From a virus (Duplodnaviria > Caudoviricetes), in the IMG/VR virus record IMGVR_UViG_2901966883_000003: 64,000 nt of DNA. One strand, 5' to 3'. The first letter of the stretch is position 1, and every line of letters begins with the position of its first letter. Below the pieces are notes generated by a model. The model worked only from the letters and a program-made list of their open reading frames with translations, was not told the DNA's origin and ran no database searches. The translations under genes were made by a program, and so were the position numbers. Positions 5,313-38,133 of this stretch are shown here, piece after piece.

Positions 5313-8300
5313 GCAATGGGTAAGTTTACATCAACATACAGACATTAGTAATAGCAACTATTTTGAAGTGGTAACTCAATTTAAAGATTATGTTGCTTAT
5401 GCTAAAGAACATGGACTAAATGCAGTTACATCAACAGAACATGGGAACGTAGTAAGATGGATATATCGAAAGGAACTGGCAGAACAGGCTGGTTTGAAAT
5501 ATATTCATGGAATGGAAGCCTATGTAACAATGAGTTTAGAAGGCAAAGAAGCCTATCATACAATTCTCTTAGCACGAAATTATGACGGTGTTAAGGAAAT
5601 TAATAAACTATCATCAAAGTCTTTTAATAGAACGGACGGACACTTCTATCGCAAACCACGTATTCTATTCAATGAATTAAAAGACACTTTCAAAAACGGT
5701 AATATCTACATTACCACAGCCTGTTTAGCGGGCTTTATCTATCAAAACAAACCCCAAAAAGATGATACAGAAGAAATAAGAAATACTAAAAAGAATGTGG
5801 TGCAACAATGGCTTGATATGGCTAAGTTGCACAAGGATATGTTCTATTTTGAAATTCAACCACATGATAATAAAGAACAAGCTGAATTAAATACTCTAGC
5901 TATTAAGTATGCTAATTTGGTTGGCTGCCATGTTATTGCTAGTAATGACGTTCACGCTTTAAACCCCAAACACAATGAACTCAGAATGATTGTTAAAAAG
6001 GGTAAGCGTAATGATTATGATAGTGATGATGAGTTTGAGTTATGGGTTAAAACTTATGATGAAATGGTTAGTTCATTTCAAAAACAACGTGATGATTTCA
6101 ATGTTGATATTATGAGCGATGAAATTATCGCACAAGGGCTACAATCAACTTTAGATATTGCTGATAGCATAGAAGAATTTGAGCTAGATAAGAGCCATAA
6201 GTACCCTAAACTGTATGACAATCCAGAAAAAGAGTTTCAAAAGCGTATTAAACAAGGATTAAAAGACAGAGGTATCTTAGACAAATCAAAAGAAGAACGT
6301 AAAGTGTACTTAGATAGAGTTAAACATGAATATGAAGTATACAAACATAACGGTTCGATTGATTATATGTTGTGTCATGAAGATATTCTCAATGCAGCCC
6401 ATGATAATGATATTGATTTAGGTTACAGTAGGGGGAGCGTGGGAGGTTCTTTAATTGCCTATTTATGCCACCAAACTGAAATAGATAGTGTTAAGCTAGG
6501 ACTAAATTTTGAGCGATTTATGAACCCAGAACGTGTAAATCTTCCTGATATAGATACCGATGCTATGAGTAAAGACCAACAATGGCTGCAACAATGGATG
6601 TTGACTAATGACAAATGGCACGCTGCTTCTATCTTGACAACTAATACCTATGGTCTAAAAGGTGCTATCAAGGCTATTGCTGATGGTATGGATAGATATG
6701 CTGGCAAACCACAATACATTCAAAGTATTAGAAATCAGATTGATGATAAGGGCAATTACAATAATAGCTTATACGAAGAACATAAAGAATTGTTTGACAA
6801 TGCAAAGCAAATTGTAGGTGTGATTGACTCCTTTGGTAGACATGCAGCTGGTGTTTTAATTGACACTAATACTATTGACGACCATGTTGGTATTCAAACT
6901 ATCTCTAAATGGGACTATCCTGTAACACAAGTTACTATGAAAGAAATCGACCATTACAACTGGGTTAAGTTTGATATGTTAGGCTTAGACAATGTTGGTT
7001 TAATCTCTAAAGCATGTAAATTAGCTGGTTTGCCATACCTAACTCCAGATAGTACAGATATTGTTGATTTTGAAGATAAAAAGGTTTGGGATTCTATGCG
7101 TGATAACAATATTGGTATCTTCCAATTTGAAGCTGATAGAGCGGGTCAAATTCTTAAAGATTTGTTCGCTGATGATACTATTGACAAAATCGAAAATGAG
7201 TTCGATAATAATGAAAGAACAAAAGTTCGATACATGGATTTGTTAAGTTTGGCTAACGCAGCACAAAGACCTTCTGGTGCAAGCTATTTATACAATGTAA
7301 CTCATGGTGTTGTTAAGGATAACGGTCATCCAGCCTTAAATGAATTTTTAGCTCCTACGCTAGGTAATCTTGTATATCAAGAACAATTAATCCAGTTTTT
7401 AGTGCAATTTTGTGGATACAGCAGTGCAAAGGGAGATTTAATTCGTAGGGCTGTGGGTAAAAAAATCCAGTCTGTTATTGATGAAGAAGTCCCTAAAATC
7501 CATACAGCGTTTGTTAAGACCATGACAGAAAAATATGGTGATAGTGAAGAACATGCTGAAAAAGTCGCAAAAGACTTTATGCAAGTATTCATGGACGCTG
7601 CCAACTACGGTTTCTCTATTAATCATTCAATGGCATATTCATATATTGGTTATATCTCAACTTGGCTAAGATATTACTATCCACTGGAATGGGGTACAGC
7701 AGCATGTGAAATCTGGAAAGATAAACCAGAAAAGATTGCTAAGGTTACTTCATATCTCGAAAGTAGAGGTATTAATATCAAGCCAGCTAGATTTAGAAAA
7801 TCACGTGCCTTGTATTACATGGATAAGGAAACTAACTCAATTTATGAAGGTATCGAACCGATTAAACGTGTAAATGAGAAAGCTGGTGAACAATTATACA
7901 GTTTACGTAACAACCAATATGACACATTTACAGACTTGTTATTGGATATTTACGAGCCTATTAAGTCAATTAAAGAGGGTAATTATGCAACAAATTTAAC
8001 AGAATTGTATAAATTATCATCGGAAAAAGTCAAGGAAATAGACAAACTTGCAAAGTGCAACAAAAACATCTTCACAAAAAAAGAAAAATGTGTTGAAGTT
8101 AATAAGTCTATTATGATAAACTTAATATCGCTGAATTATTTTGATGAGTTTGGTGGCTCTAAACTATTAGCTGACACTTATGAAAAGTTTATCAAAATAT
8201 ATAAACCGAAGAATAAGACGCTCATCAACAAACAGAAGGCATATCTTGAATGTCTTGAGTTTGAAAGAACGTCTGCTAACATTGATTTTCCGCTAGATTA

Positions 8301-10564: not shown

Positions 10565-10627
10565 TTGATTTAAGATTGATATATGGTATAATATAGTAGT
10601 TAAGTTAAGAGTTTAGTGAATAAACGA
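10565..10627 (+). promoter_or_regulatory. Sigma-A promoter followed by the 24-bp repeated element
   Basis: TTGATT-16-TATAAT then GTTAAGAGTTTAGTGAATAAACGA (10604-10627). Confidence 0.7.
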
Positions 10628-10666
10628 ACTCTTAATAAAATCGAATAAGCGAGGTGCAGAACTAGA

Positions 10667-23890: not shown

Positions 23891-23929
23891 TAGAAGATAA
23901 ATTTATTATATCAATTTTGTGAAATAAAG

Positions 23930-25099
23930 GTGGTGAGTAAGATGTTAAAAGGTGTTAAATTACGCATATATCCAAATAAGGAGCAACGTAAACAGTTAGA
24001 TATTATGTTTGGGAATAGTCGTTTTGTTTGGAATAATATGTTAGCTATGATGAATGAGCGTTATAAGAATAACAAAGATTTGCCTATATTGAGTGGTTAT
24101 GACTTGAATAACTTACTAAAGCCATTGAAAGTTGAATATCCATTTTTGAAAGAGAGTGATAGTTCTGCCTTGCAAGTAGATTGCCAAAATCTATATCAAG
24201 CGTGGAAGAACTTCTTTAATTCTGGTTTTGGCAAGCCTAGATTTAAATCTAGGAAATTCTATAAGCAATCATATACGGGTAAGTTGGTAAGTATCCATGT
24301 AATAGCTAAAAGATATATGAAAATGCCTAAGCTAGGATATATCAAGACTAGCAAAACATCTCAACTCACTGATTGTAAGATTAAACGCTATACGTTAAGT
24401 CATGATACAACTGGTCGTTATTATTTATCTTTACAGGTAGAATGTGAAAACCAAGCATTGTTACCTAAGACAAATAAAGCAGTTGGACTAGACTTAGGTG
24501 TAGCAAATTTAGCTATTTCTTCTGATGGAATTAAATACGATACATTCCATGTTGAAAGTTTAGAGAATAAAGCTAACTTGTGGCAACGTAAGTTTTCTAA
24601 GCGTAGACATCAAGCTAAGGTTTGTATTGAGAGCGACAAATACTCAAAAGTATTAGTGCCTAGAGATTTTGATGATTTTAAAAATCTGCAAAAAGCTCAA
24701 AGAGCTAAAGCTAGATTACAAGCTAAAATAGCCAACACACGCAAAGATTACTTGCATAAATTAACCACAATGTTAGTTAAACAATACGATACTATCATTA
24801 TTGAAGATTTAAGAGCTAAGAATATGATGAAAAATCATAAACTAGCAAAAGCAATCGCTAATGGTTCGTGGTACTTATTCCGTTCTATGTTGGAATATAA
24901 GTGTAATTGGTATGGGAAACAACTAATAGTAGTTAGTCCTAAATACACTTCACAAGTATGTTCTAACTGTGGTGTAAATACAGGTAAGAAACCATTGGAT
25001 GTTCGTGAGTGGACTTGTGATAATTGTGGTACACATCACGATAGAGATATTAACGCTGCTAGAAATATCTTAGCTAAAGGATTAAAACAAGTAGCTTAA
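23930..25099 (+). CDS. tnpB: TnpB RNA-guided endonuclease (tnpB-1)
   Basis: N-terminal HTH (LRIYP), RuvC D (GLDLG), E (IEDL), D (RDINAA), CSNC/CDNC zinc finger. Confidence 0.93.
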
Positions 25100-25219
25100 A
25101 TAAGCAAAACGGTATGGGACGTACCGTGGTAATATATCTAGGTTCTGTAAGTTAGGCTTAGTCCTAAATACTACCTAGAGTTCCCAGAAACCACCGATTT
25201 TAATAGGTGTGTAGTCCAT
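25100..25219 (+). ncRNA. Putative omega-RNA of tnpB-1 with degenerate right-end hairpin
   Basis: GGTA-TGGGACG-TACC, GTGGTAA...GAGTTCCCAGAAACC layout; imperfect terminal hairpin. Confidence 0.6.
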
Positions 25220-29981: not shown

Positions 29982-30365
29982 CTATTTATAATCACGAAAT
30001 GATTTCAATGAAAAATAATCATCTCGTTCTTTGATTAATGTTGATGGAGTGATTTCTACGACTACTCTCATGAAATCTGGTACGTCTTTATCAGCAATAG
30101 TGATATACTTCAATTCTGGGAAGTCCTCATCACCAACATATCTCGTGTGCATATCAGCTTCTGTGTATTCCTCATTCGTGAAATCATCAGCATAAACATT
30201 ACTACGAATTTGATAATTTAATTCGTCCATACATTCAAAAGCTAAATCTTCGGCTATTTCTTCTGCTAGACTTTGGTTATCTACAACAGTATATCTAGTA
30301 GTACTTGTCATATAGCCAGTTCTATCATATGTTCTAGCGTCAATCATTAACACTTGATTGTACAT
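29982..30365 (-). CDS. Hypothetical phage protein
   Basis: GAGGTG RBS. Confidence 0.65.
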   Translation of the reverse strand: MYNQVLMIDARTYDRTGYMTSTTRYTVVDNQSLAEEIAEDLAFECMDELNYQIRSNVYADDFTNEEYTEADMHTRYVGDEDFPELKYITIADKDVPDFMRVVVEITPSTLIKERDDYFSLKSFRDYK

Positions 30366-30368
30366 AAG

Positions 30369-30650
30369 CTACACCTCTGTTCTTGGCTTACTCATATCAA
30401 TGAACTCTTTTTGGTTCTTAATTAATGTATGTTCTGACAAGCCATGCTTATCCAATACATCAACTAATTTCATATCTTCATCTTCAATTACATAAATATA
30501 TTCATCAAAGATAGATTGTTGTAAAGCCCATTTTGGACTCCATGTCGCAGCGTCAACACGTCCTAAATATTTTGTGCTATGTGCGAACACAATCTTTTCT
30601 CCATCTAATGACTTACCTTTAATAAATTCCCATTGTACTTGTTTACTCAA
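30369..30650 (-). CDS. Hypothetical phage protein
   Basis: AAGGAGGG RBS. Confidence 0.65.
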   Translation of the reverse strand: MSKQVQWEFIKGKSLDGEKIVFAHSTKYLGRVDAATWSPKWALQQSIFDEYIYVIEDEDMKLVDVLDKHGLSEHTLIKNQKEFIDMSKPRTEV

Positions 30651-30768
30651 ACAAGCTAATCCCTCCTTATATCAGTATCAATATGTATCGAAGTGTTATT
30701 ATAGTCTAACCAAAATCTAAACTGGTTACCATAACAACACTATAAACTTTCGGTGTGTAAGAATAGTC

Positions 30769-31398
30769 TTAGTAGACTTCACCGTCATAAACATCAGCAA
30801 CTACATGTCTGAAATCAAATGTAGCTAATTCAGATAACTTAATAATGCGTGTTGTACCACATGCAACCATAAGATTTAATGGTTCGTGTACTTCATCATC
30901 TGGAATAACTACAACACATTGCTTACCATGTCCGTATAAGTTACCCATTTCCCATGCTTGCCCATCATCTGGTTCACTTGGAACATAAAGCATAATACCT
31001 AATTCACAGCCTTTAATTCCTTCAATATCGGCTGATACAGTTGCCATCTGCCACTCTTTATCAAGCATAATTTCTGGGTTGTTATTCACGTCCATACCTT
31101 TATATTGATGTGCCAATGGATAATGTGAGTATTCCCAACTTACACTAGGGTTAGCTTTGATAGCTTCTATCCCAGCTTTCATATGTTCCGTTTGTTTATC
31201 ACTAAACCATGAACAACCAATATATGCTTTGACTGGAGGCATAGGAGCTTCTACCAATTTTGTGCTTGTAAACATATAGTCACCGTCCTTTTCTTTAGAG
31301 ATTTGTTTCAGATTTTTGTTTACTACTTTATTAACTTTGTCTTTAAGTGTATTGAGATAATTTGTATCTCCATACAATACTTCATTAATTGAACTCAT
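30769..31398 (-). CDS. Nucleoside 2-deoxyribosyltransferase
   Basis: YIGCSWFS.KQ, PL.HQY, EWQ.AT...D, DDG.AWEMG, NLM motifs. Confidence 0.85.
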   Translation of the reverse strand: MSSINEVLYGDTNYLNTLKDKVNKVVNKNLKQISKEKDGDYMFTSTKLVEAPMPPVKAYIGCSWFSDKQTEHMKAGIEAIKANPSVSWEYSHYPLAHQYKGMDVNNNPEIMLDKEWQMATVSADIEGIKGCELGIMLYVPSEPDDGQAWEMGNLYGHGKQCVVVIPDDEVHEPLNLMVACGTTRIIKLSELATFDFRHVVADVYDGEVY

Positions 31399-31410
31399 TA
31401 TTTACCTACC

Positions 31411-31635
31411 TTATTTAGATAATTCAGCAATTAGATTTTCCAATTCATCTTCATTGATTTTGATTTGAGCATTGATATTATAACCTGTAACGAATGATAG
31501 CAATTCAATACCATTATCGCTACTAAACAATACATCTGTACCATCAGCAGTATTATCTGTGATTACATGATAGTAATCATCGCTCAAACCTTTAACAATA
31601 TAAATTGGTTGTGATAACTTTTCAATATTACGCAA
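31411..31635 (-). CDS. Hypothetical phage protein
   Basis: GGAGGTG RBS. Confidence 0.6.
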   Translation of the reverse strand: MRNIEKLSQPIYIVKGLSDDYYHVITDNTADGTDVLFSSDNGIELLSFVTGYNINAQIKINEDELENLIAELSK

Positions 31636-31643
31636 TTAAGGGG

Positions 31644-32363
31644 CTACACCTCCTTATTACGTTTTGCTTTTATTTTATCGAACTCATCTTGTGTTAATTT
31701 ACCTAAATCAACTAGCTTTTGTTCAATCATGTTAAGTACTTCATTACGGTCGGATAAGTTGTTTACGAAATCGTATTGTGAACGGTCAATACGTACAACT
31801 GGTGCTTGATAGAAACCATTGTACCAGCGTTTGTATGCTCTATTCACTGAATGATAATAATCTACTAACTTAGGGTCTTTACGCACATCTTCCATATCAC
31901 GACCACGTGCTTGTATTGAGTCGATTTCATCTTCTTCGTCAATATCAATGTAGACAACCAAATCTGGAAAACCGTTAAACGGACTGCCATTAACATTAGA
32001 TTGCATTTCTTGGTTCAATGTCATGTAAACGTTATAAGCGTCTTCGTCCATTTCCCCTCGTTCGTATATATTTCGTGCTAAGATATAATCGCTTGCTAGA
32101 TTTGAGTCTAATACAGCGTTTTCTTCAACGATAGCCTTTTTTAATTGTTGGTATCTAACCGTTAAGAAAGCTACCTGTAACATAGCACTAACTTGTTTTC
32201 TACTTTCTGCACCAGCACTATAAAAATGTTCTAACATGCCTTTGATTAAGCCATTGTCTACATCTTCATAATATGGGGTACTATTTAAATCTTTAGCGAG
32301 TATTTCTGTTAAGCTAGATTTGCCAGCAGAAATACTACCAATTACATAGATAATACTAACCAA
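31644..32363 (-). CDS. Deoxynucleoside kinase
   Basis: IGSISAGKSS P-loop, QVAFL..RY, PDLVVY, I.ARGRDME; start placed at TTG 32363. Confidence 0.88.
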   Translation of the reverse strand: MVSIIYVIGSISAGKSSLTEILAKDLNSTPYYEDVDNGLIKGMLEHFYSAGAESRKQVSAMLQVAFLTVRYQQLKKAIVEENAVLDSNLASDYILARNIYERGEMDEDAYNVYMTLNQEMQSNVNGSPFNGFPDLVVYIDIDEEDEIDSIQARGRDMEDVRKDPKLVDYYHSVNRAYKRWYNGFYQAPVVRIDRSQYDFVNNLSDRNEVLNMIEQKLVDLGKLTQDEFDKIKAKRNKEV

Positions 32364-32377
32364 CTTCTTTCTCACAT

Positions 32378-32566
32378 TCGTGTGCATATAGGAACAAAAC
32401 AAAATATTAGATGATAAAGGCTTATTAAATCTTGAACGCAACAAATTGAGAAACATCTTACATTATCGAAGATACAAGGGATAAGCCTTAGAATATTATC
32501 ATATATACGAAAAGACGTTAAATGAATATAACTAGATTTTTATGATTTGTTCCTATATACACACGA
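32378..32566 (-). repeat. 21-bp inverted repeat enclosing a 147-nt loop (hairpin-framed RNA)
   Basis: 32378-32398 vs 32546-32566, 20/21; the mismatch is G.U on the minus strand. Confidence 0.75.
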
Positions 32567-32587
32567 AATATTATATTTAATTGTTAA

Positions 32588-32677
32588 CGGTAAGTAAGGG
32601 ACTCGAACCCTTGCGTCCACAATTATGAACCTAACAGTTTAGCAAACTGTCCCCTTCACCAACTTGGGTAACTTACC
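32588..32677 (-). tRNA. tRNA-Ser(GCT)
   Basis: GGTAAGT/ACTTACC acceptor, TTGCTAA loop, long variable arm, AAGGG-TTCGAGT-CCCTT T-arm. Confidence 0.92.
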
Positions 32678-32683
32678 AAATAT

Positions 32684-33104
32684 AACCAGCTATCGAACAT
32701 TAAATTGCATTCGCCTCAACAATCTGTTCCCTAGCAAAGTTCGGCGAAAGAACTCCACTGCACCGAGAGGATAACTGGCTAAAGCAACTGGTGGATATAT
32801 CTAAACGATTGGGCTTATCCCCAGCGAAAAAGTCATCTCGCCACTTTGAGATAACTTACTAAATAATCGGCACACCTAACTACACACACCAAGCTCGCAC
32901 GTATGACAACAGTAGCTATCTGCTGCGAAGTAATCAACTTCCGAACTTGGCATTAGTATGTCCCTTGCGAATTGCTTTATACACTCCCTATACGCTTTTC
33001 ACACTTGGAAGTGATACTCCACAATCCGCCTTACCAACTCCCGTCCCACATTAAAGTACTCATAACGGTACTACCTTGATGAGAGGTGTGTCGGGAGTTG
33101 GTAC
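32684..33104 (-). ncRNA. Unidentified structured RNA region
   Basis: GC-richer non-coding stretch with several stems (TACCAACTCCCG/CGGGAGTTGGTA, GCCAAGTTCG/CGAGCTTGGT, CCAGTTATC/GATAGCTGG). Confidence 0.55.
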
Positions 33105-33106
33105 AA

Positions 33107-33151
33107 AACCCACTTCTGGAGTTGAACCAGAATAATACTACCGAGGTGAGT
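33107..33151 (-). ncRNA. Minimal tRNA-like element (acceptor + T-arm only)
   Basis: ACTCAC/GTGGGT stem; TCTGG-TTCAACT-CCAGA T-arm. Confidence 0.6.
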
Positions 33152-33162
33152 AAACATAAATA

Positions 33163-33375
33163 TATGTTCTTTGACACATATGAGTAGCACATTTTTTGTT
33201 GCCACAGATGTAATAAAAGGTACTGTCTGTCCCACGTACATGTGGGTAACACCAGTTTCCTACGTCTCAAGTGCTATAAACCTTAGTCTGTCCCACATGT
33301 ATGTGGGTGACACTTCTTTATCACTGTAACGCAGTCTGACGGACGTAGTCTGTCCCACGTACATATGGGTAACAC
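33163..33375 (-). CRISPR. Mini CRISPR array, type I-E-like 28-bp repeat GTGTTACCCACATGTACGTGGGACAGAC: 3 repeats + 1 degenerate, 3 spacers
   Basis: Repeats at 33348-33375, 33286-33313, 33225-33252 and degenerate 33163-33190; spacers 34, 33 and 34 bp; palindromic CCCAC/GTGGG core. Confidence 0.88.
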
Positions 33376-33557
33376 ACTAAAAATCAGACCAATAAATCCC
33401 ACAGTACTAGGGTTTTGGGAACTCCTAATTTTTTAGGGTTGCCAAAATTTCATTAGATACATCGTTGCCTTCGTATCAGAAAAATCTGAAATAAAGGTCT
33501 TACATGATAATTACCAAATGCTTTAAAGTCCGCAACAGACAAACGGACTACCTATTT
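33376..33557 (-). ncRNA. Putative omega-RNA scaffold of tnpB-2 ending in a CRISPR-leader-like sequence
   Basis: GTCCG/CGGAC hairpin, TTGGTAA...GAGTTCCCAAAACC as in the tnpB-1 RNA, then TTGGTCTGATTTTTAGT abutting repeat 1. Confidence 0.6.
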
Positions 33558-34814
33558 CTAGGCTAATTGTTTTAATCCTTTGTCTAGGATATTCTTGGCT
33601 GCATTTATATCACGAATATGGTAAGTATTACAGCTAGGACAAGTCCAACTTCTATCTTTTAGTGTTAGCTTGTTCGTATCTTTTGTTCCCATAACATGCC
33701 CACATTCACTACATGTTTGTGTTGTATTCTTAGGATTTACAGTAACAAAAGTCTTACCATATAATTCAGCTTTGTATTCTAGTTTTTGTAGGAATGTTCT
33801 CCAACCTACATCACTAATAGACATAGCCAAAGCGTGATTTCTCAACATATTTTTACTTCTTAGATTTTCAGCCACAACCAAATCGTGGTTCTTGATAAGT
33901 GTTATCGACATCTCGTCCAAGAATTTATTACGTTGATTACGCACTCTGTTCATGAGTTTTGATACCACCATACGTTGCTTTTGATAGTTCTTGCTGTCAC
34001 GTAAAGAACGTCCCTCTTTCTTGGCTCTAACTTGTCTGCGTGATAATTTACGTTGTGCTTTAGCTAATCTACCCTTAATTGTTCTATAAAATCTTGGGTT
34101 AGCCACAACATTACCTTCGCTAGTTGTTAAGAAGTTATCTGTGTTTAAGTCAAGTCCAACTTGAGAATTAGTCTTAGGCAACTCTTTAACAAAAGGTGTA
34201 TCAGAACCTAGCTGCATAGAAACATAGTAGATACCAAAAGCGTTTTTAGAAATAGTAGTTGTACCAATTCTAATATCGCCTTTATTATCCAATAGCTTTC
34301 TATATGAACCACTCACACGAATAATACCCAACTTAGGAATATTGATATGCTTATTATCTACGAACCTAATTGAGCCAGTCCACATATTTACTGGTTTCTT
34401 CTTACTTGGATAAGTACCACTTGTTTGATACTTCTCCTCGTAAGTTTTCTTATGGAAATTAGGTGTCCCAGCGTTATGAACTTTTCTAAACATATTCCAT
34501 GCAGCTTTATAAGAACGCATTGCCATAGAACGACAATGACTATCAATATAAGGGTGTTTCATGTAGGTATAGTGCGTTGCTAAATGGTTTTGAGCCTTCT
34601 TACGTTTTTCCAATTCAGCAATACGTGTTTGAATTGTATCAATAGGTAGTTTTACCTGTTTTAATTGGTATAACTCTTTATCAATCGCAACCATAGCGTT
34701 ATATACAGCCCTAGATACATCACTGTTCATCTTAATGATTTGTTTTTGCTTCGTGCTAGGGTGAATACACATCTTCAAGCCATAGTGGTATTTTAACTCA
34801 CTCATTGTCTTCAT
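33558..34814 (-). CDS. tnpB: TnpB RNA-guided endonuclease (tnpB-2), CRISPR-adjacent
   Basis: RuvC D (GLDLN), E (AENL), D (RDINAA); CSEC/CPSC zinc finger; 418 aa. Confidence 0.93.
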   Translation of the reverse strand: MKTMSELKYHYGLKMCIHPSTKQKQIIKMNSDVSRAVYNAMVAIDKELYQLKQVKLPIDTIQTRIAELEKRKKAQNHLATHYTYMKHPYIDSHCRSMAMRSYKAAWNMFRKVHNAGTPNFHKKTYEEKYQTSGTYPSKKKPVNMWTGSIRFVDNKHINIPKLGIIRVSGSYRKLLDNKGDIRIGTTTISKNAFGIYYVSMQLGSDTPFVKELPKTNSQVGLDLNTDNFLTTSEGNVVANPRFYRTIKGRLAKAQRKLSRRQVRAKKEGRSLRDSKNYQKQRMVVSKLMNRVRNQRNKFLDEMSITLIKNHDLVVAENLRSKNMLRNHALAMSISDVGWRTFLQKLEYKAELYGKTFVTVNPKNTTQTCSECGHVMGTKDTNKLTLKDRSWTCPSCNTYHIRDINAAKNILDKGLKQLA

Positions 34815-34860
34815 CTATCTCACCTCTTTTCTGTTATATATTTATAGTCTTAAAGACTAA

Positions 34861-34920
34861 TTGCAACGGTGGGGCTCGAACCCACATCATCCTTTGCTCT
34901 ACCATTTGAGCTACGTTGCT
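34861..34920 (-). ncRNA. Anticodon-less tRNA-like element
   Basis: GCAACG/CGTTGC acceptor, GCTC-AAATGGTA-GAGC D-arm, 10-nt linker, GTGGG-TTCGAGC-CCCAC T-arm. Confidence 0.8.
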
Positions 34921-35065
34921 AACCTTCTAATTCTAAAAGGAGGAAATCTTAAACCATGAACCAATCCGTAAGTCGTAATGAACCCGCTCATGAATTAACT
35001 TATTAATGTCGCATTATTACTTAACGCAAAGTTATAATCTCGGGGTAGTCATGCCCTACCCCTAT

Positions 35066-35115
35066 TACCACATTAGGAGTCGAACTCATAAAATGTACCT
35101 TTTAACATCTGTGGC
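35066..35115 (-). ncRNA. Anticodon-less degenerate tRNA-like element (matches spacer 3)
   Basis: GCCACA/TGTGGT acceptor, GAG-TTCGACT T-loop, no anticodon arm. Confidence 0.55.
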
Positions 35116-35224
35116 AACAAAAAAAATAATTTAAAAAAGGAGTGTTGATTAATACGCAAAACCTAATCAACTAATAAAAAATGAACGAATTAATAAATGT
35201 TTGTTTCGAGGTGTTTCCACCTCT

Positions 35225-35299
35225 ATGTCATAGTAAGGACTTGAACCTTGCTGCTCTCGTGTTAAGGACGAGTGTGTTACCCGCATACACCATATGACT
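35225..35299 (-). tRNA. Atypical tRNA-like gene, anticodon loop CCTTAAC (nominal TTA)
   Basis: GTCATA/TATGAC acceptor, GTGT/ACAC D-stem, CTCGT/ACGAG anticodon stem, AAGG-TTCAAGT-CCTT T-arm; C33 and A1:A72 mismatch. Confidence 0.65.
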
Positions 35300-35683
35300 A
35301 CCGATTAGGATAGATATTTATTGAATAATTACGCATAGGTTTACTAACTACACTATTCGCGTTCGCCTATCCGCTCCCACATTCCCTTTAAAGTCTGTGA
35401 GCGTGGTATGTAAAAGCCGCATATGAGCTTGTGTGGTATAGTGTTCCCGACAGTCCAACATTTTACATACCAAATGTCTACTCGTTTATTCTCTAAACTC
35501 TTAACATATAGTAGACTGTTTTTGGGAGAGCATTTTAATAGCTCCTAGAGAGAACGGGACGAAAAACTGTGTCAGTATCGTAAGTTGTATTAGGGGTTAA
35601 TTATAGCTGTATTTCATTGAGTTGAAAGGAAGTGAAAACCAACCCGTTCCCTTTAGCAACCATCAAAGCTGCCTTATGTAGTT

Positions 35684-35899
35684 TTAGTGTTTTCTCTTAA
35701 CAGAATAGATATGTTTCTTGTGCCATTCTTTTATATTGCTAAACCCAGCTGCCAAACCAGCTAAATAAAATAACTTAGTCCAGAAACCATAGCTATAAAA
35801 GATTAGGTCAAACGCAACGGTCATAATAAACAACCATTGAATTAAATACCATGTTCTCGTTAAGAGAAATCTATCAATCATATTACTTAGTTTATCCAT
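35684..35899 (-). CDS. Small membrane protein
   Basis: GGAGGTG RBS before MDKLSN; two hydrophobic segments. Confidence 0.65.
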   Translation of the reverse strand: MDKLSNMIDRFLLTRTWYLIQWLFIMTVAFDLIFYSYGFWTKLFYLAGLAAGFSNIKEWHKKHIYSVKRKH

Positions 35900-36448
35900 C
35901 TTTACACCTCCAATTAAGGATGGATATATCAACGAGTAGTTAAAAATGGAAATATATAATCAAGAGCATAAAAAATACATTAAAAGTCAACCGCCTACTC
36001 GCTGATATATCAACCCTAATGGGCTGACATTCAGATAAAAACAAAAATAGTATAAAAATAAAAGTTTTAAAGAGATGATATTAAAATCAGTATTAATGTA
36101 ATTAACAAAATAGACTAGAGATACACTAACCATAGAATATCATCAAATATAAGAAAAATTTGGAAGTACAAATCCTTTTTAGATTTGCGAAAGTTGTTTA
36201 GGTAAACTAAGTTTTGTCTACCTACATAGGATTTGGAAACTTCTTGACGGAAGGAGTTATAAACCAATATTCTAACCAAACCCTATGTAGATGGGCAATA
36301 CCGTTATTCACCCACCTACCAATATTTTGGAGGTGTCGCCACGATAACCGCTACATAAGTAAAGAAAATAAACAAAATATTTTAGTAAAAGGAGGCACAT
36401 TCATTGTGAATGCACAAAATCAAGTATCATTATAGTTATCGTGACAAA

Positions 36449-36528
36449 TATCGGATTGATGAATTGAACACCAAACCTTACAAGTACCGTTATCATACTC
36501 ATACGCTCTGCCATTAAGCTATCCGATT
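36449..36528 (-). tRNA. Atypical tRNA-like gene with extended anticodon arm
   Basis: ATCGGA/TCCGAT acceptor, GCTT-AATGGCA-GAGC D-arm, 8-bp stem with 9-nt loop, TGGTG-TTCAATT-CATCA T-arm. Confidence 0.6.
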
Positions 36529-36612
36529 GTTGAATCACGTAAGGACAATTACATTAAGTTCAACATATTTAATAGATTTAATATATTTAATTTTGTTGTA
36601 GCCTTAAGTTAT

Positions 36613-36675
36613 TCGTTTATTCTCTTAACTCTTAACTACATATATTATAATACCATATAAAAAATAAAAGTCAAC
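36613..36675 (-). promoter_or_regulatory. Promoter of the ncRNA/tnpB-2 unit followed by the 24-bp element
   Basis: TTGACT...TGGTATTATAAT then GTTAAGAGTTAAGAGAATAAACGA. Confidence 0.7.
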
Positions 36676-36682
36676 ATAAAAA

Positions 36683-36943
36683 CTAAGAAATCTTCATCTT
36701 TTTTTGAAGATTGTTTAACTTATCCATTCGTAGCCCAGTCCATGTATCATCTTCTGTAACTACAACAGACAAACTACGTAGTCCTCTTTCTAACAAATAA
36801 TCTAATGCTTTGGGGTCTTCATCTACATTGTATTCATGATAGTCAATTCCCATAGAATGTAATTTGCGTTTTGTTATCTTACATTGTTGGCAATTATTCT
36901 TAGAATATACTGTTACTACATTGCTACTTGATACTGTCGTCAA
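36683..36943 (-). CDS. nrdH: NrdH-like glutaredoxin
   Basis: VTVYSKNNCQQCKITK, NVDEDP, W.G.R.DK. Confidence 0.85.
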   Translation of the reverse strand: MTTVSSSNVVTVYSKNNCQQCKITKRKLHSMGIDYHEYNVDEDPKALDYLLERGLRSLSVVVTEDDTWTGLRMDKLNNLQKKMKIS

Positions 36944-37298
36944 CCGTTCTATTCACCTCCTTATGTCTGTTATACTCATTTTCCCAGTATTCAATATTAT
37001 CAATGAAATTGTCTACTATATTAGAAACATAAGTCATCAAAGCAAATGATATTGCCTCTACTCCTGTAACAAATATGGTTGGTATTTCATACTTACCCCA
37101 CCCCATACCAATATACACAACTAGAGCTGCTGTAACAAAAAGCCAGAAGGTAACACTATGACTTTCTAGTTTCTTCATTTCATCATATACTCTACGCATA
37201 GATTTTAGTTCAATGTCAGCAGAAATCATATCACCACTCTCAAGGTATGTAGATAGATTACGCACTGATTTATTGAACTCTCTTTCAGCACTTGTCAT
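36924..37298 (-). CDS. Membrane protein
   Basis: Two hydrophobic segments. Confidence 0.6.
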   Translation of the reverse strand: MTSAEREFNKSVRNLSTYLESGDMISADIELKSMRRVYDEMKKLESHSVTFWLFVTAALVVYIGMGWGKYEIPTIFVTGVEAISFALMTYVSNIVDNFIDNIEYWENEYNRHKEVNRTVDDSIK

Positions 37299-37705
37299 TT
37301 GTACGGATAATCTCCCTTCTTACCACTAAATTCAAAATAGTTTTCGATTGTGCTAAGGGCTAACGTCATATTCAATAATGGATTCCCAAATCTCATCTTA
37401 TAAGCATTTAATACAATTTCACCATCGTCTTCAATTTTGCATCCATACCACTTAACGATGGGACGTAGTTCATCATAGCGTTCAGATGGAATATGAGAAA
37501 AATTAATACCGAGGGTATAGCCATCATCAGAATAGACATTATCCTTGTTATAGATTTCCACGTTATCGTGCATATAGTCTACCGCACGCAGCGTATAAGA
37601 TGTCCATCCATTATCTAATGGCAATTTATACCACACTAAATTATCATAGACTTCTACAATCTTAGATGTATCTATATCGTTTATGTTCTGTAACGGTCTA
37701 TCCAT
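37295..37705 (-). CDS. Hypothetical phage protein
   Basis: AGGAGGG RBS. Confidence 0.65.
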   Translation of the reverse strand: MDRPLQNINDIDTSKIVEVYDNLVWYKLPLDNGWTSYTLRAVDYMHDNVEIYNKDNVYSDDGYTLGINFSHIPSERYDELRPIVKWYGCKIEDDGEIVLNAYKMRFGNPLLNMTLALSTIENYFEFSGKKGDYPYK

Positions 37706-37866
37706 GAGCTATCCCTCCTAATCAAGTTTTCTCAAAATATCTTCAAGTTCCCAATAAATTAGAACCAACATTGCAGCTGAAATTTTCATTGCCATATCTA
37801 TTTCTGAGAAAGCTATACCTACAGTTATTAATATGAATACTATTGTTGTTAGAATGTTCCATACTT

Positions 37867-38133
37867 TCATAGAACTCCTCCCTCCATGTTAATCGCACTT
37901 TTAAGAAGTGAACTCTTATTAATGAGTACGCAATTCTTGTTATCAAAGAACCTTAACGCAGTTTCTTTAACATCATGCTCCCAATAATATATATGAATAT
38001 GCCCGTCATGAAGATTAACAACGCATGAATTGTTTGTTTCTAGCGTAAACATATAGAAACTATCGTTATCTCTAACATAGATTATATCACCGTATTTAAC
38101 CTCGTACTTATCCAATATCTCCTTAATCTTCAT
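37867..38133 (-). CDS. Paralog family C small protein
   Basis: MKIKEIL...GDI...NLHDG. Confidence 0.65.
   Translation of the reverse strand: MKIKEILDKYEVKYGDIIYVRDNDSFYMFTLETNNSCVVNLHDGHIHIYYWEHDVKETALRFFDNKNCVLINKSSLLKSAINMEGGVL

Follow-up and report, generated by a model that had tools for sequence, protein, structure and literature searches.

The window analysed here is a stretch of 64,000 nucleotides from the IMG/VR virus record IMGVR_UViG_2901966883_000003, a member of the Caudoviricetes, and the locus in question occupies its minus strand from position 33163 to 34814. There, a gene for a TnpB nuclease, tnpB-2, is followed by the scaffold of its omega-RNA and then directly by a short array of clustered regularly interspaced short palindromic repeats (CRISPR). 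The original prediction, made from the letters of this stretch, offered two readings of the arrangement: either an intermediate on the way from TnpB to Cas12 or an immobilised TnpB transcribed together with an array that borrows the type I-E machinery of the host. Two related phages will be mentioned repeatedly, namely a 127-kb IMG/VR virus that is the nearest record found (G001) and a complete phage (G002/L020). Reading the minus strand from its 5′ end, the elements are:

33558..34814 (−): coding sequence of tnpB-2, 418 aa, an ISDra2-like TnpB with the RuvC triad D222, E316 and D402 intact and a zinc finger
33527..33549 (−): first hairpin of the omega-RNA, AGTCCG-TTTGTCTGTTG-CGGACT, with the predicted 5′ strand of the pseudoknot, TCTGT, in the loop at 33539-33535
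33413..33526 (−): remaining omega-RNA scaffold, with TGGTAA, internal hairpins and a stem closing at GAGTTCCCAAAA
33392..33412 (−): R0*, a degenerate repeat copy, CCCTAGTACTGTGGGATTTAT, where the omega-RNA has stem 4; it reads ATTTAT in place of ACAGAC and so has lost the pseudoknot strand
33376..33391 (−): short leader TGGTCTGATTTTTAGT between R0* and repeat 1, too short to hold its own promoter
33348..33375 (−): repeat 1, made up of a type I-E-like hairpin body and the tail ACAGAC; the predicted pseudoknot strand, ACAGA, lies at 33353-33349
33314..33347 (−): spacer 1, unique to the window phage; no target found in the phage collection or IMG/VR
33286..33313 (−): repeat 2, 28 nt
33253..33285 (−): spacer 2, unique to the window phage; no target found in the same two sets
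33225..33252 (−): repeat 3, 28 nt
33191..33224 (−): spacer 3, the oldest, common to the window and G001
33163..33190 (−): degenerate last repeat, which keeps its 5′ half and has lost the 3′ arm of the hairpin and the pseudoknot tail, as in G001 and L020

The 418-aa open reading frame (ORF) of tnpB-2 matches the Pfam domains OrfB_IS605 (PF01385) and Cas12f1-like_TNB (PF07282), together with HTH_OrfB_IS605. ISDra2 TnpB (PDB 8bf8 and 8h1j) aligns with TnpB-2 over its full length (E 4e-36), and in the alignment with the PDB entries residues D222, E316 and D402 superpose on the catalytic D191, E278 and D361, in keeping with the claim that all three RuvC residues are present; the zinc-finger cysteines are retained as well. 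LaTranC (PDB 9jfo), the only representative in the PDB of the transposon-CRISPR intermediates (TranC), aligns over the RuvC part only (E 5e-24), and the product of tnpB-1, another tnpB gene of the window, is 33% identical to TnpB-2. Among seven orthologues of tnpB-2, whose synonymous divergence (dS) runs from 0.3 to more than 2 and so reaches saturation, the ratio of nonsynonymous to synonymous substitution rates (dN/dS) is 0.04–0.10. The gene is under strong purifying selection.

Downstream of the gene, the landmarks of the 3′ flank (hairpin, TGGTAA, GAGTTCCCA) are the same as those 3′ of tnpB-1, as the original prediction had noticed, and the segment from 33413 to 33526 can be aligned by eye with the tnpB-1 RNA and with the canonical omega-RNAs of Lactobacillaceae TnpBs. 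The 5′ end of the tnpB-2 omega-RNA probably lies inside the ORF. A scan of positions 30000–38000 against Rfam returned tRNA matches, one weak chance match and no omega-RNA family; a promoter and terminator scan stayed at chance level; and the minimum free energy fold of the scaffold (z = −2) is uninformative alone. After the hairpin, TGGTAA and the further hairpins, the strand reads GAGTTCCCAAAA, CCCTAGTACTGTGGGATTTAT, the 16-nt leader, three repeats and a fourth half-copy. The weak CCCTAGTACTGTGGG directly after the closing stem had been noticed where a right-end hairpin was expected. It is no failed hairpin of that kind; it belongs to R0*, a degenerate repeat copy in the slot of the canonical stem 4, which continues ATTTAT in the window and in most relatives. 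The leader TGGTCTGATTTTTAGT is conserved in the window, G001, L020, L050 and L065; a likeness of the leader end to that of type I-E leaders was dropped as evidence (p = 0.08).

The array agrees with its earlier description as 28-bp repeats at a 61–62-bp period with the last one degenerate, in that three clear repeats, spaced by 61 and 62 nt, are followed in phase by a fourth half-copy. This fourth copy retains 13 of its first 15 bases by our own count, its 3′ half being gone. The palindromic core of the repeat occurs seven times in the window, with 0.14 copies expected. The proposed reading of the array, co-directional with tnpB, is supported, because the repeat at the far end is degenerate and because in related phages the spacers change at the tnpB-proximal end.

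How, then, might such an array be connected with the nuclease beside it? For comparison, we took 30 ordinary insertion sequence (IS) relatives (57–68% identity) from 401 Lactobacillaceae genomes, together with three from metagenomes. Four features recur in their omega-RNAs: the first hairpin, whose loop reads ...GGCAACYTG; the closing stem ...CTCACAAGC; a hairpin of 8 bp capped by TTTA; and the tail T-RGTTG-AC, with which the element ends. The tail, at the 3′ end of the RNA just before the guide, pairs with the loop of the first hairpin in 30 of 30 cases, CAACC with GGTTG at 21 loci and CAACT with AGTTG at nine (Fisher 7e-8, computed on related sequences with kinship uncorrected). In the structure of the ISDra2 omega-RNA, the strand at −5 to −3, before which comes stem 4 with its UUUA cap, is paired with −103 to −105 (PMC10097598). 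The loop/tail pairing of the IS relatives matches this pseudoknot.

In the phage clade, the loop reads TCTGT and is complementary to the repeat tail ACAGA, the repeats ending ...GGG-ACAGA-C and being followed by a near-invariant T. The loop of L016 reads TCCGT, and four of the five L016 repeats end in ACGGA or ACGGG; the ATAGA tails found in L022 and L065 pair with the loop through a G-U. Altogether, 33 of 36 repeat tails pair at five of five positions with the loop of their own locus, the exceptions being the last L016 repeat and two decayed L051 repeats. Counting the T, five paired bases are followed by two bases and then by the guide, the same spacing as in the canonical tail. Across lineages, the tail GGGACAGAC is the best-conserved part of the repeat and the hairpin body drifts, to the point that in L016 repeats 1–3 the hairpin is largely lost. 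The repeat hairpin occupies the stem-4 position, and no longer anti-repeat was noticed. Within the phage scaffold, the loop TCTGT finds no partner strand. The scaffold of the window is without a pseudoknot strand of its own, and only the repeats could complete the predicted fold.

One relative, L022, is peculiar in this respect. At the R0* position it reads ...GATGGGATAGAC and continues ATAGAC-T, then comes directly a 33-nt spacer and then the regular repeats. An intact R0 of this kind was considered as the ancestral state and rejected, because the degenerate R0* is common to both deep lineages; most simply, the L022 R0 would be a recombinant of R0* and a repeat at the shared ATGGGAT. L022 shows how a repeat tail fused to the scaffold would recreate a contiguous omega-RNA plus guide of the canonical kind.

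Whether arrays with variable spacers stand beside close TnpB homologues had been proposed as a check on the locus, and all the homologues recovered keep an array at the junction, with differing spacers. The set comprises about 11 related loci with TnpBs 80–97% identical (G001, L020, L050, L014, L022, L051, L017, L016, L018 and L065-67), and every one of them keeps at least one repeat at the tnpB junction. Identity to TnpB-2 is 97% for G002/L020, 96% for L050 and L014, 94% for L022, 92% for L051, 84% for L018 and 82% for L016; the middle tnpB of L017 is the one closest to the window by the dN/dS analysis. Lactobacillaceae homologues at 70% identity or less are ordinary IS copies with no arrays. 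G001 covers most of the window in blocks of 75–98% identity, mostly 92–97%, and has the same tnpB-array junction with five repeats, only the tnpB-distal spacer being in common with the window. L020 has three repeats and all its spacers are different. As said above for the direction of the array, these three near-identical phages differ at the tnpB-proximal end and hold a single spacer in common, that of the window and G001. In the more distant relatives L050, L014, L022, L051, L017, L018 and L016, repeat-spacer units lie in the same place with other spacers. What looks like a spacer in L014 was rejected: it is part of the backbone, which in the window lies 240 nt beyond the array, so that L014 has a deletion and not a spacer.

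Two observations on individual arrays may be added. The L016 array (7440-7700) holds one exact spacer duplicate and a second pair differing by one base, so that tandem duplication of repeat-spacer units also shapes the arrays. In G001, the 94-nt "direct terminal repeat" behind its complete status (1-94 and 127242-127335) falls inside the array; in all likelihood it is an overlap from the assembly rather than a packaging terminus.

The array variation leads to two explanations in which the spacers would have no use to the nuclease. In the first, the locus would be a decaying relic, an insertion sequence with tnpB having landed by an old array and both persisting without a joint function. The truncated repeats and duplicated spacers of some relatives fit this, as do the solo repeats of L014 and of the L065-67 lineage, which has a frameshifted tnpB and has kept a single repeat. 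In the second, the transcribed I-E-like repeats would be an RNA decoy, similar to the Racr anti-CRISPRs, that sequesters Cas6e or Cascade subunits of the host. The solo repeats and the I-E-like hairpin body are consistent with this, and single repeat units in phages are known as RNA anti-CRISPRs (PMC11656645). A relic is, however, difficult to reconcile with a dN/dS this low across saturated synonymous divergence, with the conservation of scaffold and repeat tail and with the turnover of spacer content. A decoy, for which the spacers are irrelevant, does not explain why spacers mostly of 33 nt are regularly exchanged among near-identical phages, nor why the tail is unlike the I-E handle and pairs with the omega-RNA loop. 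The spacer targets, described below, speak against both, since self-targets are mutated in the carriers and intact in relatives, and since the spacers match related phages at sites with a conserved adjoining motif. We regard the relic as very improbable and the decoy as the least probable of the explanations weighed here.

The label "type I-E-like" is justified as regards the array itself: repeat body, period and the T after the repeat all match Lactobacillaceae I-E arrays. A Limosilactobacillus array (L101) beside casE, cas1 and cas2 has the repeat GTATTCCCCATGTATGTGGGGGTGATCC, of 28 nt, at a 61-nt period. Of 28 Limosilactobacillus I-E units, 25 have the T after the repeat, and so do 26 of 31 phage units. 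The phage spacers are mostly 33 nt long. In global alignments with GTATTCCCCATGTATGTGGGGGTGATCC, the phage repeats score 6–9, and 0 or 5 of 5000 shuffles, depending on the repeat, score as high. The similarity of the phage repeats to the last 28 nt of the canonical omega-RNAs is not significant, which leaves the birth of the repeat by duplication of a canonical omega-RNA stem 4 unsupported. The divergence from the I-E repeat is concentrated in the last bases, GTGATCC in I-E and ACAGAC in the phage. Thus, the most fitting description of the repeat is that of a chimera, its body being of type I-E and its tail apparently that of a TnpB pseudoknot. The "TAGTTGAC" that comes after the last Limosilactobacillus I-E repeat was also considered as an omega-RNA tail and rejected, being the start of a spacer.

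The I-E body raises the possibility of a captured array that depends on the host, processed by host Cas6e and used by Cascade-Cas3 against competing phages, with TnpB-2 a neighbour that supplies the promoter. Besides the repeat body, the 61-nt period and the T, this would accommodate the lack of cas genes in the phage (Cas1 and CasE were not found in G001, G002 or G003, which are complete or near-complete related phage records), spacers directed against related phages, as in viral mini-arrays (PMC11656645), and a 5′ AAT motif lying where a type I protospacer adjacent motif (PAM) would lie. Such mini-arrays, however, usually have a repeat identical to that of a host (PMC11656645), and here a strict degenerate pattern covering all repeats of the window and G001 found none in 185,579 genomes, one per species, or in JGI metagenomes, and in IMG/VR it found G001 only. 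In the 401 Lactobacillaceae genomes, a tandem-tail pattern, likewise strict, found no array with an ACAGAC-type tail. Moreover, the would-be 5′ handle for Cascade, ACAGAC in place of GTGATCC, matches and covaries with the TnpB pseudoknot loop; the hairpin that Cas6e needs is the less conserved part of the repeat; and the tnpB beside the array is intact and under strong purifying selection. We therefore consider it unlikely that host Cascade is the sole user of the array. Apart from this, CasE was not found in the five genomes carrying the closest chromosomal TnpBs, and a near-identity search of the region in GenBank phages gave no match.

Candidate targets could be assigned to three spacers. 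For spacer 3, the match is in L014, about 280 nt upstream of the L014 tnpB, with a single mismatch (30 of 31 aligned bases). The equivalent site in the window is:

35095..35124 (+): mutated copy, in the window itself, of the site matched by spacer 3; AAAAT precedes it, and tnpB-2 lies about 280 nt downstream

This site matches the spacer only with a 2-nt deletion, and the copy in G001 is more diverged. The oldest spacer of L020 matches, at 30 of 33 positions, a repeated motif in the window (36612-36644), G001 and L014, weaker copies of which lie in the window at 10603-10628 and 35482-35505. A truncated spacer of L018 is identical to 15 nt of tnpB-2 in all the other phages and not in L018 itself. 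All three protospacers have AA on the 5′ side and then start with the T that the array carries (AAT). In E. coli type I-E, the last base of the PAM is carried into the array, and the AAT pattern resembles this arrangement. The AAT motif also overlaps the TTTAAT flank of the IS relatives; with three cases, it is a lead and no more. In the phage collection (blastn) and in IMG/VR (exact 24-26-mers), spacers 1 and 2 of the window have no match, and the L022 and L018 arrays gave a single chance-level match against the phage collection. For all spacers but the three named, the sets searched yielded no target. As to the nature of the site hit by the L020 spacer, its motif (GTTAAGAGTT.AG.GAA.AAACGA) lies directly downstream of TATAAT-like boxes and is probably a phage promoter or 5′-leader element.

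The tnpB-2 locus lacks the ends of a mobile element. TnpB-only IS relatives (G310 and L029) have a left-end hairpin after a conserved TTTAAT flank, and upstream of tnpB-2 there is neither that hairpin nor that flank; the right end is replaced by the array. A Y1 TnpA was not found in G001 or G002, and that of G003 is located elsewhere, beside other tnpB genes. Together with the missing Cas1 and CasE, the result for G001, which covers most of the window, partly bears out the earlier remark that the window has no cas or tnpA gene. The position of the locus is the same in the window, G001, G002, L014 and L050. By these signs, tnpB-2 is to be regarded as domesticated and immobilised. The other gene, tnpB-1, belongs to a TnpB-only element of 1.3 kb coding for 389 aa (23922-25219, plus strand). 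In G001, this element lies at 123226-124523, in the opposite orientation and between the equivalents of window positions 36006 and 36176, and this different site means that it is mobile and has moved recently. The tnpB-1 RNA follows the same logic of loop and 3′-end pairing, with the loop ATGGGAC and the end GTCCAT.

We propose, with somewhat better than even confidence, that the locus is a TranC-like TnpB-CRISPR hybrid in which TnpB-2 would take its guides from the array. The reasons are that the scaffold is incomplete without the repeat tail, that loop and tail have changed together relative to all the IS relatives, that conservation within the repeat is highest in the tail, that the nuclease is conserved and immobilised, and that the pair has been kept over deep divergence. 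Of the two readings first offered, the intermediate between TnpB and Cas12 gains support from the conserved junction and the tail-loop pairing, and the I-E features of the array fit a borrowing of the host I-E system, at least for spacer uptake.

In the working scheme for this hybrid, a single transcript starting from tnpB would contain, in order, the scaffold, the dead R0* with the 16-nt leader, and the repeat-spacer units. Each repeat would supply the hairpin at the stem-4 position and the 5-nt strand ACAGA, then C and T, before the guide, and TnpB-2 bound to the scaffold would accept a repeat-spacer unit as its guide module. The first unit could act in cis, and the later ones, once processed, would work in trans, held in place by the pseudoknot in the manner of a pair of trans-activating CRISPR RNA (tracrRNA) together with CRISPR RNA (crRNA). 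TnpB-2 would then cut DNA that matches the spacer and adjoins a 5′ AAT-type motif. Three features suggest that the array came from a type I-E system: the body of the repeat, the 28/33 geometry and the motif base that is carried into the array. Since the phage has no Cas1, host type I-E Cas1-Cas2 probably still load it with new spacers. Type I PAMs and the transposon-adjacent motifs (TAMs) of TnpBs both lie 5′ of the protospacer. Being on the same side, they would make spacers loaded by Cas1-Cas2 directly usable by TnpB. As far as targets could be identified, they lie in closely related phages, so that the likely role would be competition between relatives that infect the same cell. Transcription as one unit, processing, assembly in trans, cleavage and the agent of adaptation are the steps of the scheme that we infer.

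Several points weigh against the hybrid. Docking in trans through 5 bp is thin: in the tracrRNA systems known, the repeat:anti-repeat duplexes are longer, and no second anti-repeat was found here. The repeat body is significantly I-E-like and unlike the canonical omega-RNA stem 4, so that host Cascade could be the guide user. In L051, the loop is TCCGT but the tails are ACAGA and GCAGA, and one L016 repeat is also mismatched; the sequences behind the covariation counts are related, so that the events counted are not independent. The arrays of L016, L017, L018 and L022 have duplicated spacers, truncated repeats and short spacers, which means that part of the change in the arrays is recombination and not acquisition. 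Constant synteny among phages that share ancestry could reflect inheritance alone. Finally, there are only three protospacers, so that the AAT motif has n = 3.

As to how a TnpB hybrid of this kind could have arisen, it is tempting to think of a chimera of class 1 and class 2 systems. An immobilised phage TnpB would have fused its omega-RNA to a pre-existing I-E array, after which tail and loop would have co-evolved to restore the pseudoknot; host Cas1-Cas2 would load AAT-flanked 33-nt spacers, Cas6e would possibly be used, and TnpB would do the interference. The cut site expected for Cas6e falls exactly between the repeat hairpin and the pseudoknot strand. We offer this more specific history tentatively, as something possible rather than probable. 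If it is true, a type V-like system would have been born by capture and not by duplication.

The surroundings of the locus are rich in tRNA-like elements. Such elements had been described as bracketing the unit on both sides, and this holds for one of them: that at 34861-34920 is an Rfam tRNA match of 41.7 bits, whereas that at 33107-33151 was recognised by neither ARAGORN nor Rfam and shows, by eye, a T-arm and acceptor end only. The tRNA cluster comprises 35226-35298, 34861-34920 and 36449-36527, all on the minus strand; one tRNA has the anticodon TTA and is a possible ochre suppressor (ARAGORN). Two tRNA-like elements were found by Rfam only (29–42 bits), and the 60-nt one directly precedes tnpB-2. 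Downstream of the array, an inverted repeat (I3, 33032-33103) forms a conserved hairpin with an 18-bp stem, TACCAACTCCCGTCCCAC ... GTGTGTCGGGAGTTGGTA. This element recurs upstream of tnpB-2 in L017 (~5710-5790) and may represent a structured RNA belonging to the tRNA region.

Some of the related phages have, in addition, a larger TnpB-like gene of 484-558 aa, after which come arrays of its own with a different, 36-nt repeat. It is present in L017 (7643-9520) and in G003 (~60100-65150), which has about 21 copies of this repeat; the gene also lies upstream of tnpB-2 in L016, L018, L022, L051 and L065. The gene and the 36-nt repeat are absent from the window, G001 and G002. Together, they are probably another array system of the TnpB/Cas12 type in the same group of phages. 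G003, an IMG/VR record of 180 kb, carries two Y1 TnpA genes and has nine matches to the TnpB-family zinc finger; for a phage, so many IS605-type elements are unusual.

The origin of CRISPR effectors from transposon nucleases is an active question, and the loci form a graded natural series that could test the splitting model of TranC evolution discussed below: the canonical IS with its right end; the contiguous scaffold, repeat and guide of L022; the dead first repeat plus array of the window; and the solo repeats of L014 and L065-67. The series suggests a route in which an array of another CRISPR type would have been captured and only the 5-nt pseudoknot strand retuned. The locus also points to a compact nuclease of 418 aa whose guides can be exchanged and whose motif, of the AAT type, is short; should this motif be confirmed, the nuclease would be of interest for practical use. 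Moreover, the locus would add a mechanism of exclusion between related Lactobacillaceae-type phages.

How does the locus compare with systems already described? The concept of a TnpB-CRISPR intermediate has been known since 2025, when TranC systems were published (Jin et al., Cell, doi 10.1016/j.cell.2025.09.004; cited in PMC13565253, PMC13639567 and bioRxiv 10.64898/2026.03.27.714800), and tnpB-2 fits this kind. According to these sources, the published model stresses the splitting of the transposon RNA; several TranC clades are given as having no adaptation genes, repeats of 32–38 bp and few units; and CauTranC9 is described as phage-borne and TnpB-sized, with spacers that target phages (both bioRxiv 10.64898/2026.03.27.714800). 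Two routes leading on from the omega-RNA, one "duplicated" and one "split", had already been predicted by Nakagawa et al. (PMC10097598). Like TranC, the tnpB-2 locus has a TnpB-sized, TnpB-like nuclease adjoining a cas-less array of few units, with no adaptation genes nearby, and its guide RNA would be an omega-RNA (reRNA) split into a tracr-like part and a crRNA; some TranC examples are likewise in phages and target phages. Unlike the TranC clades just mentioned, it has 28-nt repeats resembling host type I-E; the putative split lies 5′ of the whole stem-4 hairpin, with only the 5-bp pseudoknot identified between the two RNAs; and a series of intermediate states is visible. In sequence, TnpB-2 is closer to ISDra2 TnpB than to LaTranC, by the E values given above.

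With IS200/IS605 TnpBs, exemplified by ISDra2 (8bf8, 8h1j; PMC10097598), the locus shares the protein architecture, the triad, the zinc finger and the layout of the scaffold, including a probable pseudoknot of an upstream loop with the bases just before the guide and a stem-4 hairpin adjoining that strand. It differs from them in having no TnpA, left-end hairpin or right end, in its fixed position in the phage, and in its several exchangeable 33-nt spacers in place of a single guide derived from the flank. With the viral mini-arrays that use host Cas proteins (PMC11656645), it has in common the absence of cas genes, the small number of spacers and their direction against related viruses, and with the Lactobacillaceae type I-E arrays (L101, beside casE) the 28-nt repeat, the 61-nt period, the T after the repeat and a similar hairpin. 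In contrast to both, the phage repeat is identical to no host array found; its last six bases fit the predicted TnpB pseudoknot and not the I-E handle; and the array is fused to an omega-RNA scaffold, where a type I-E array would have a leader with its own promoter.

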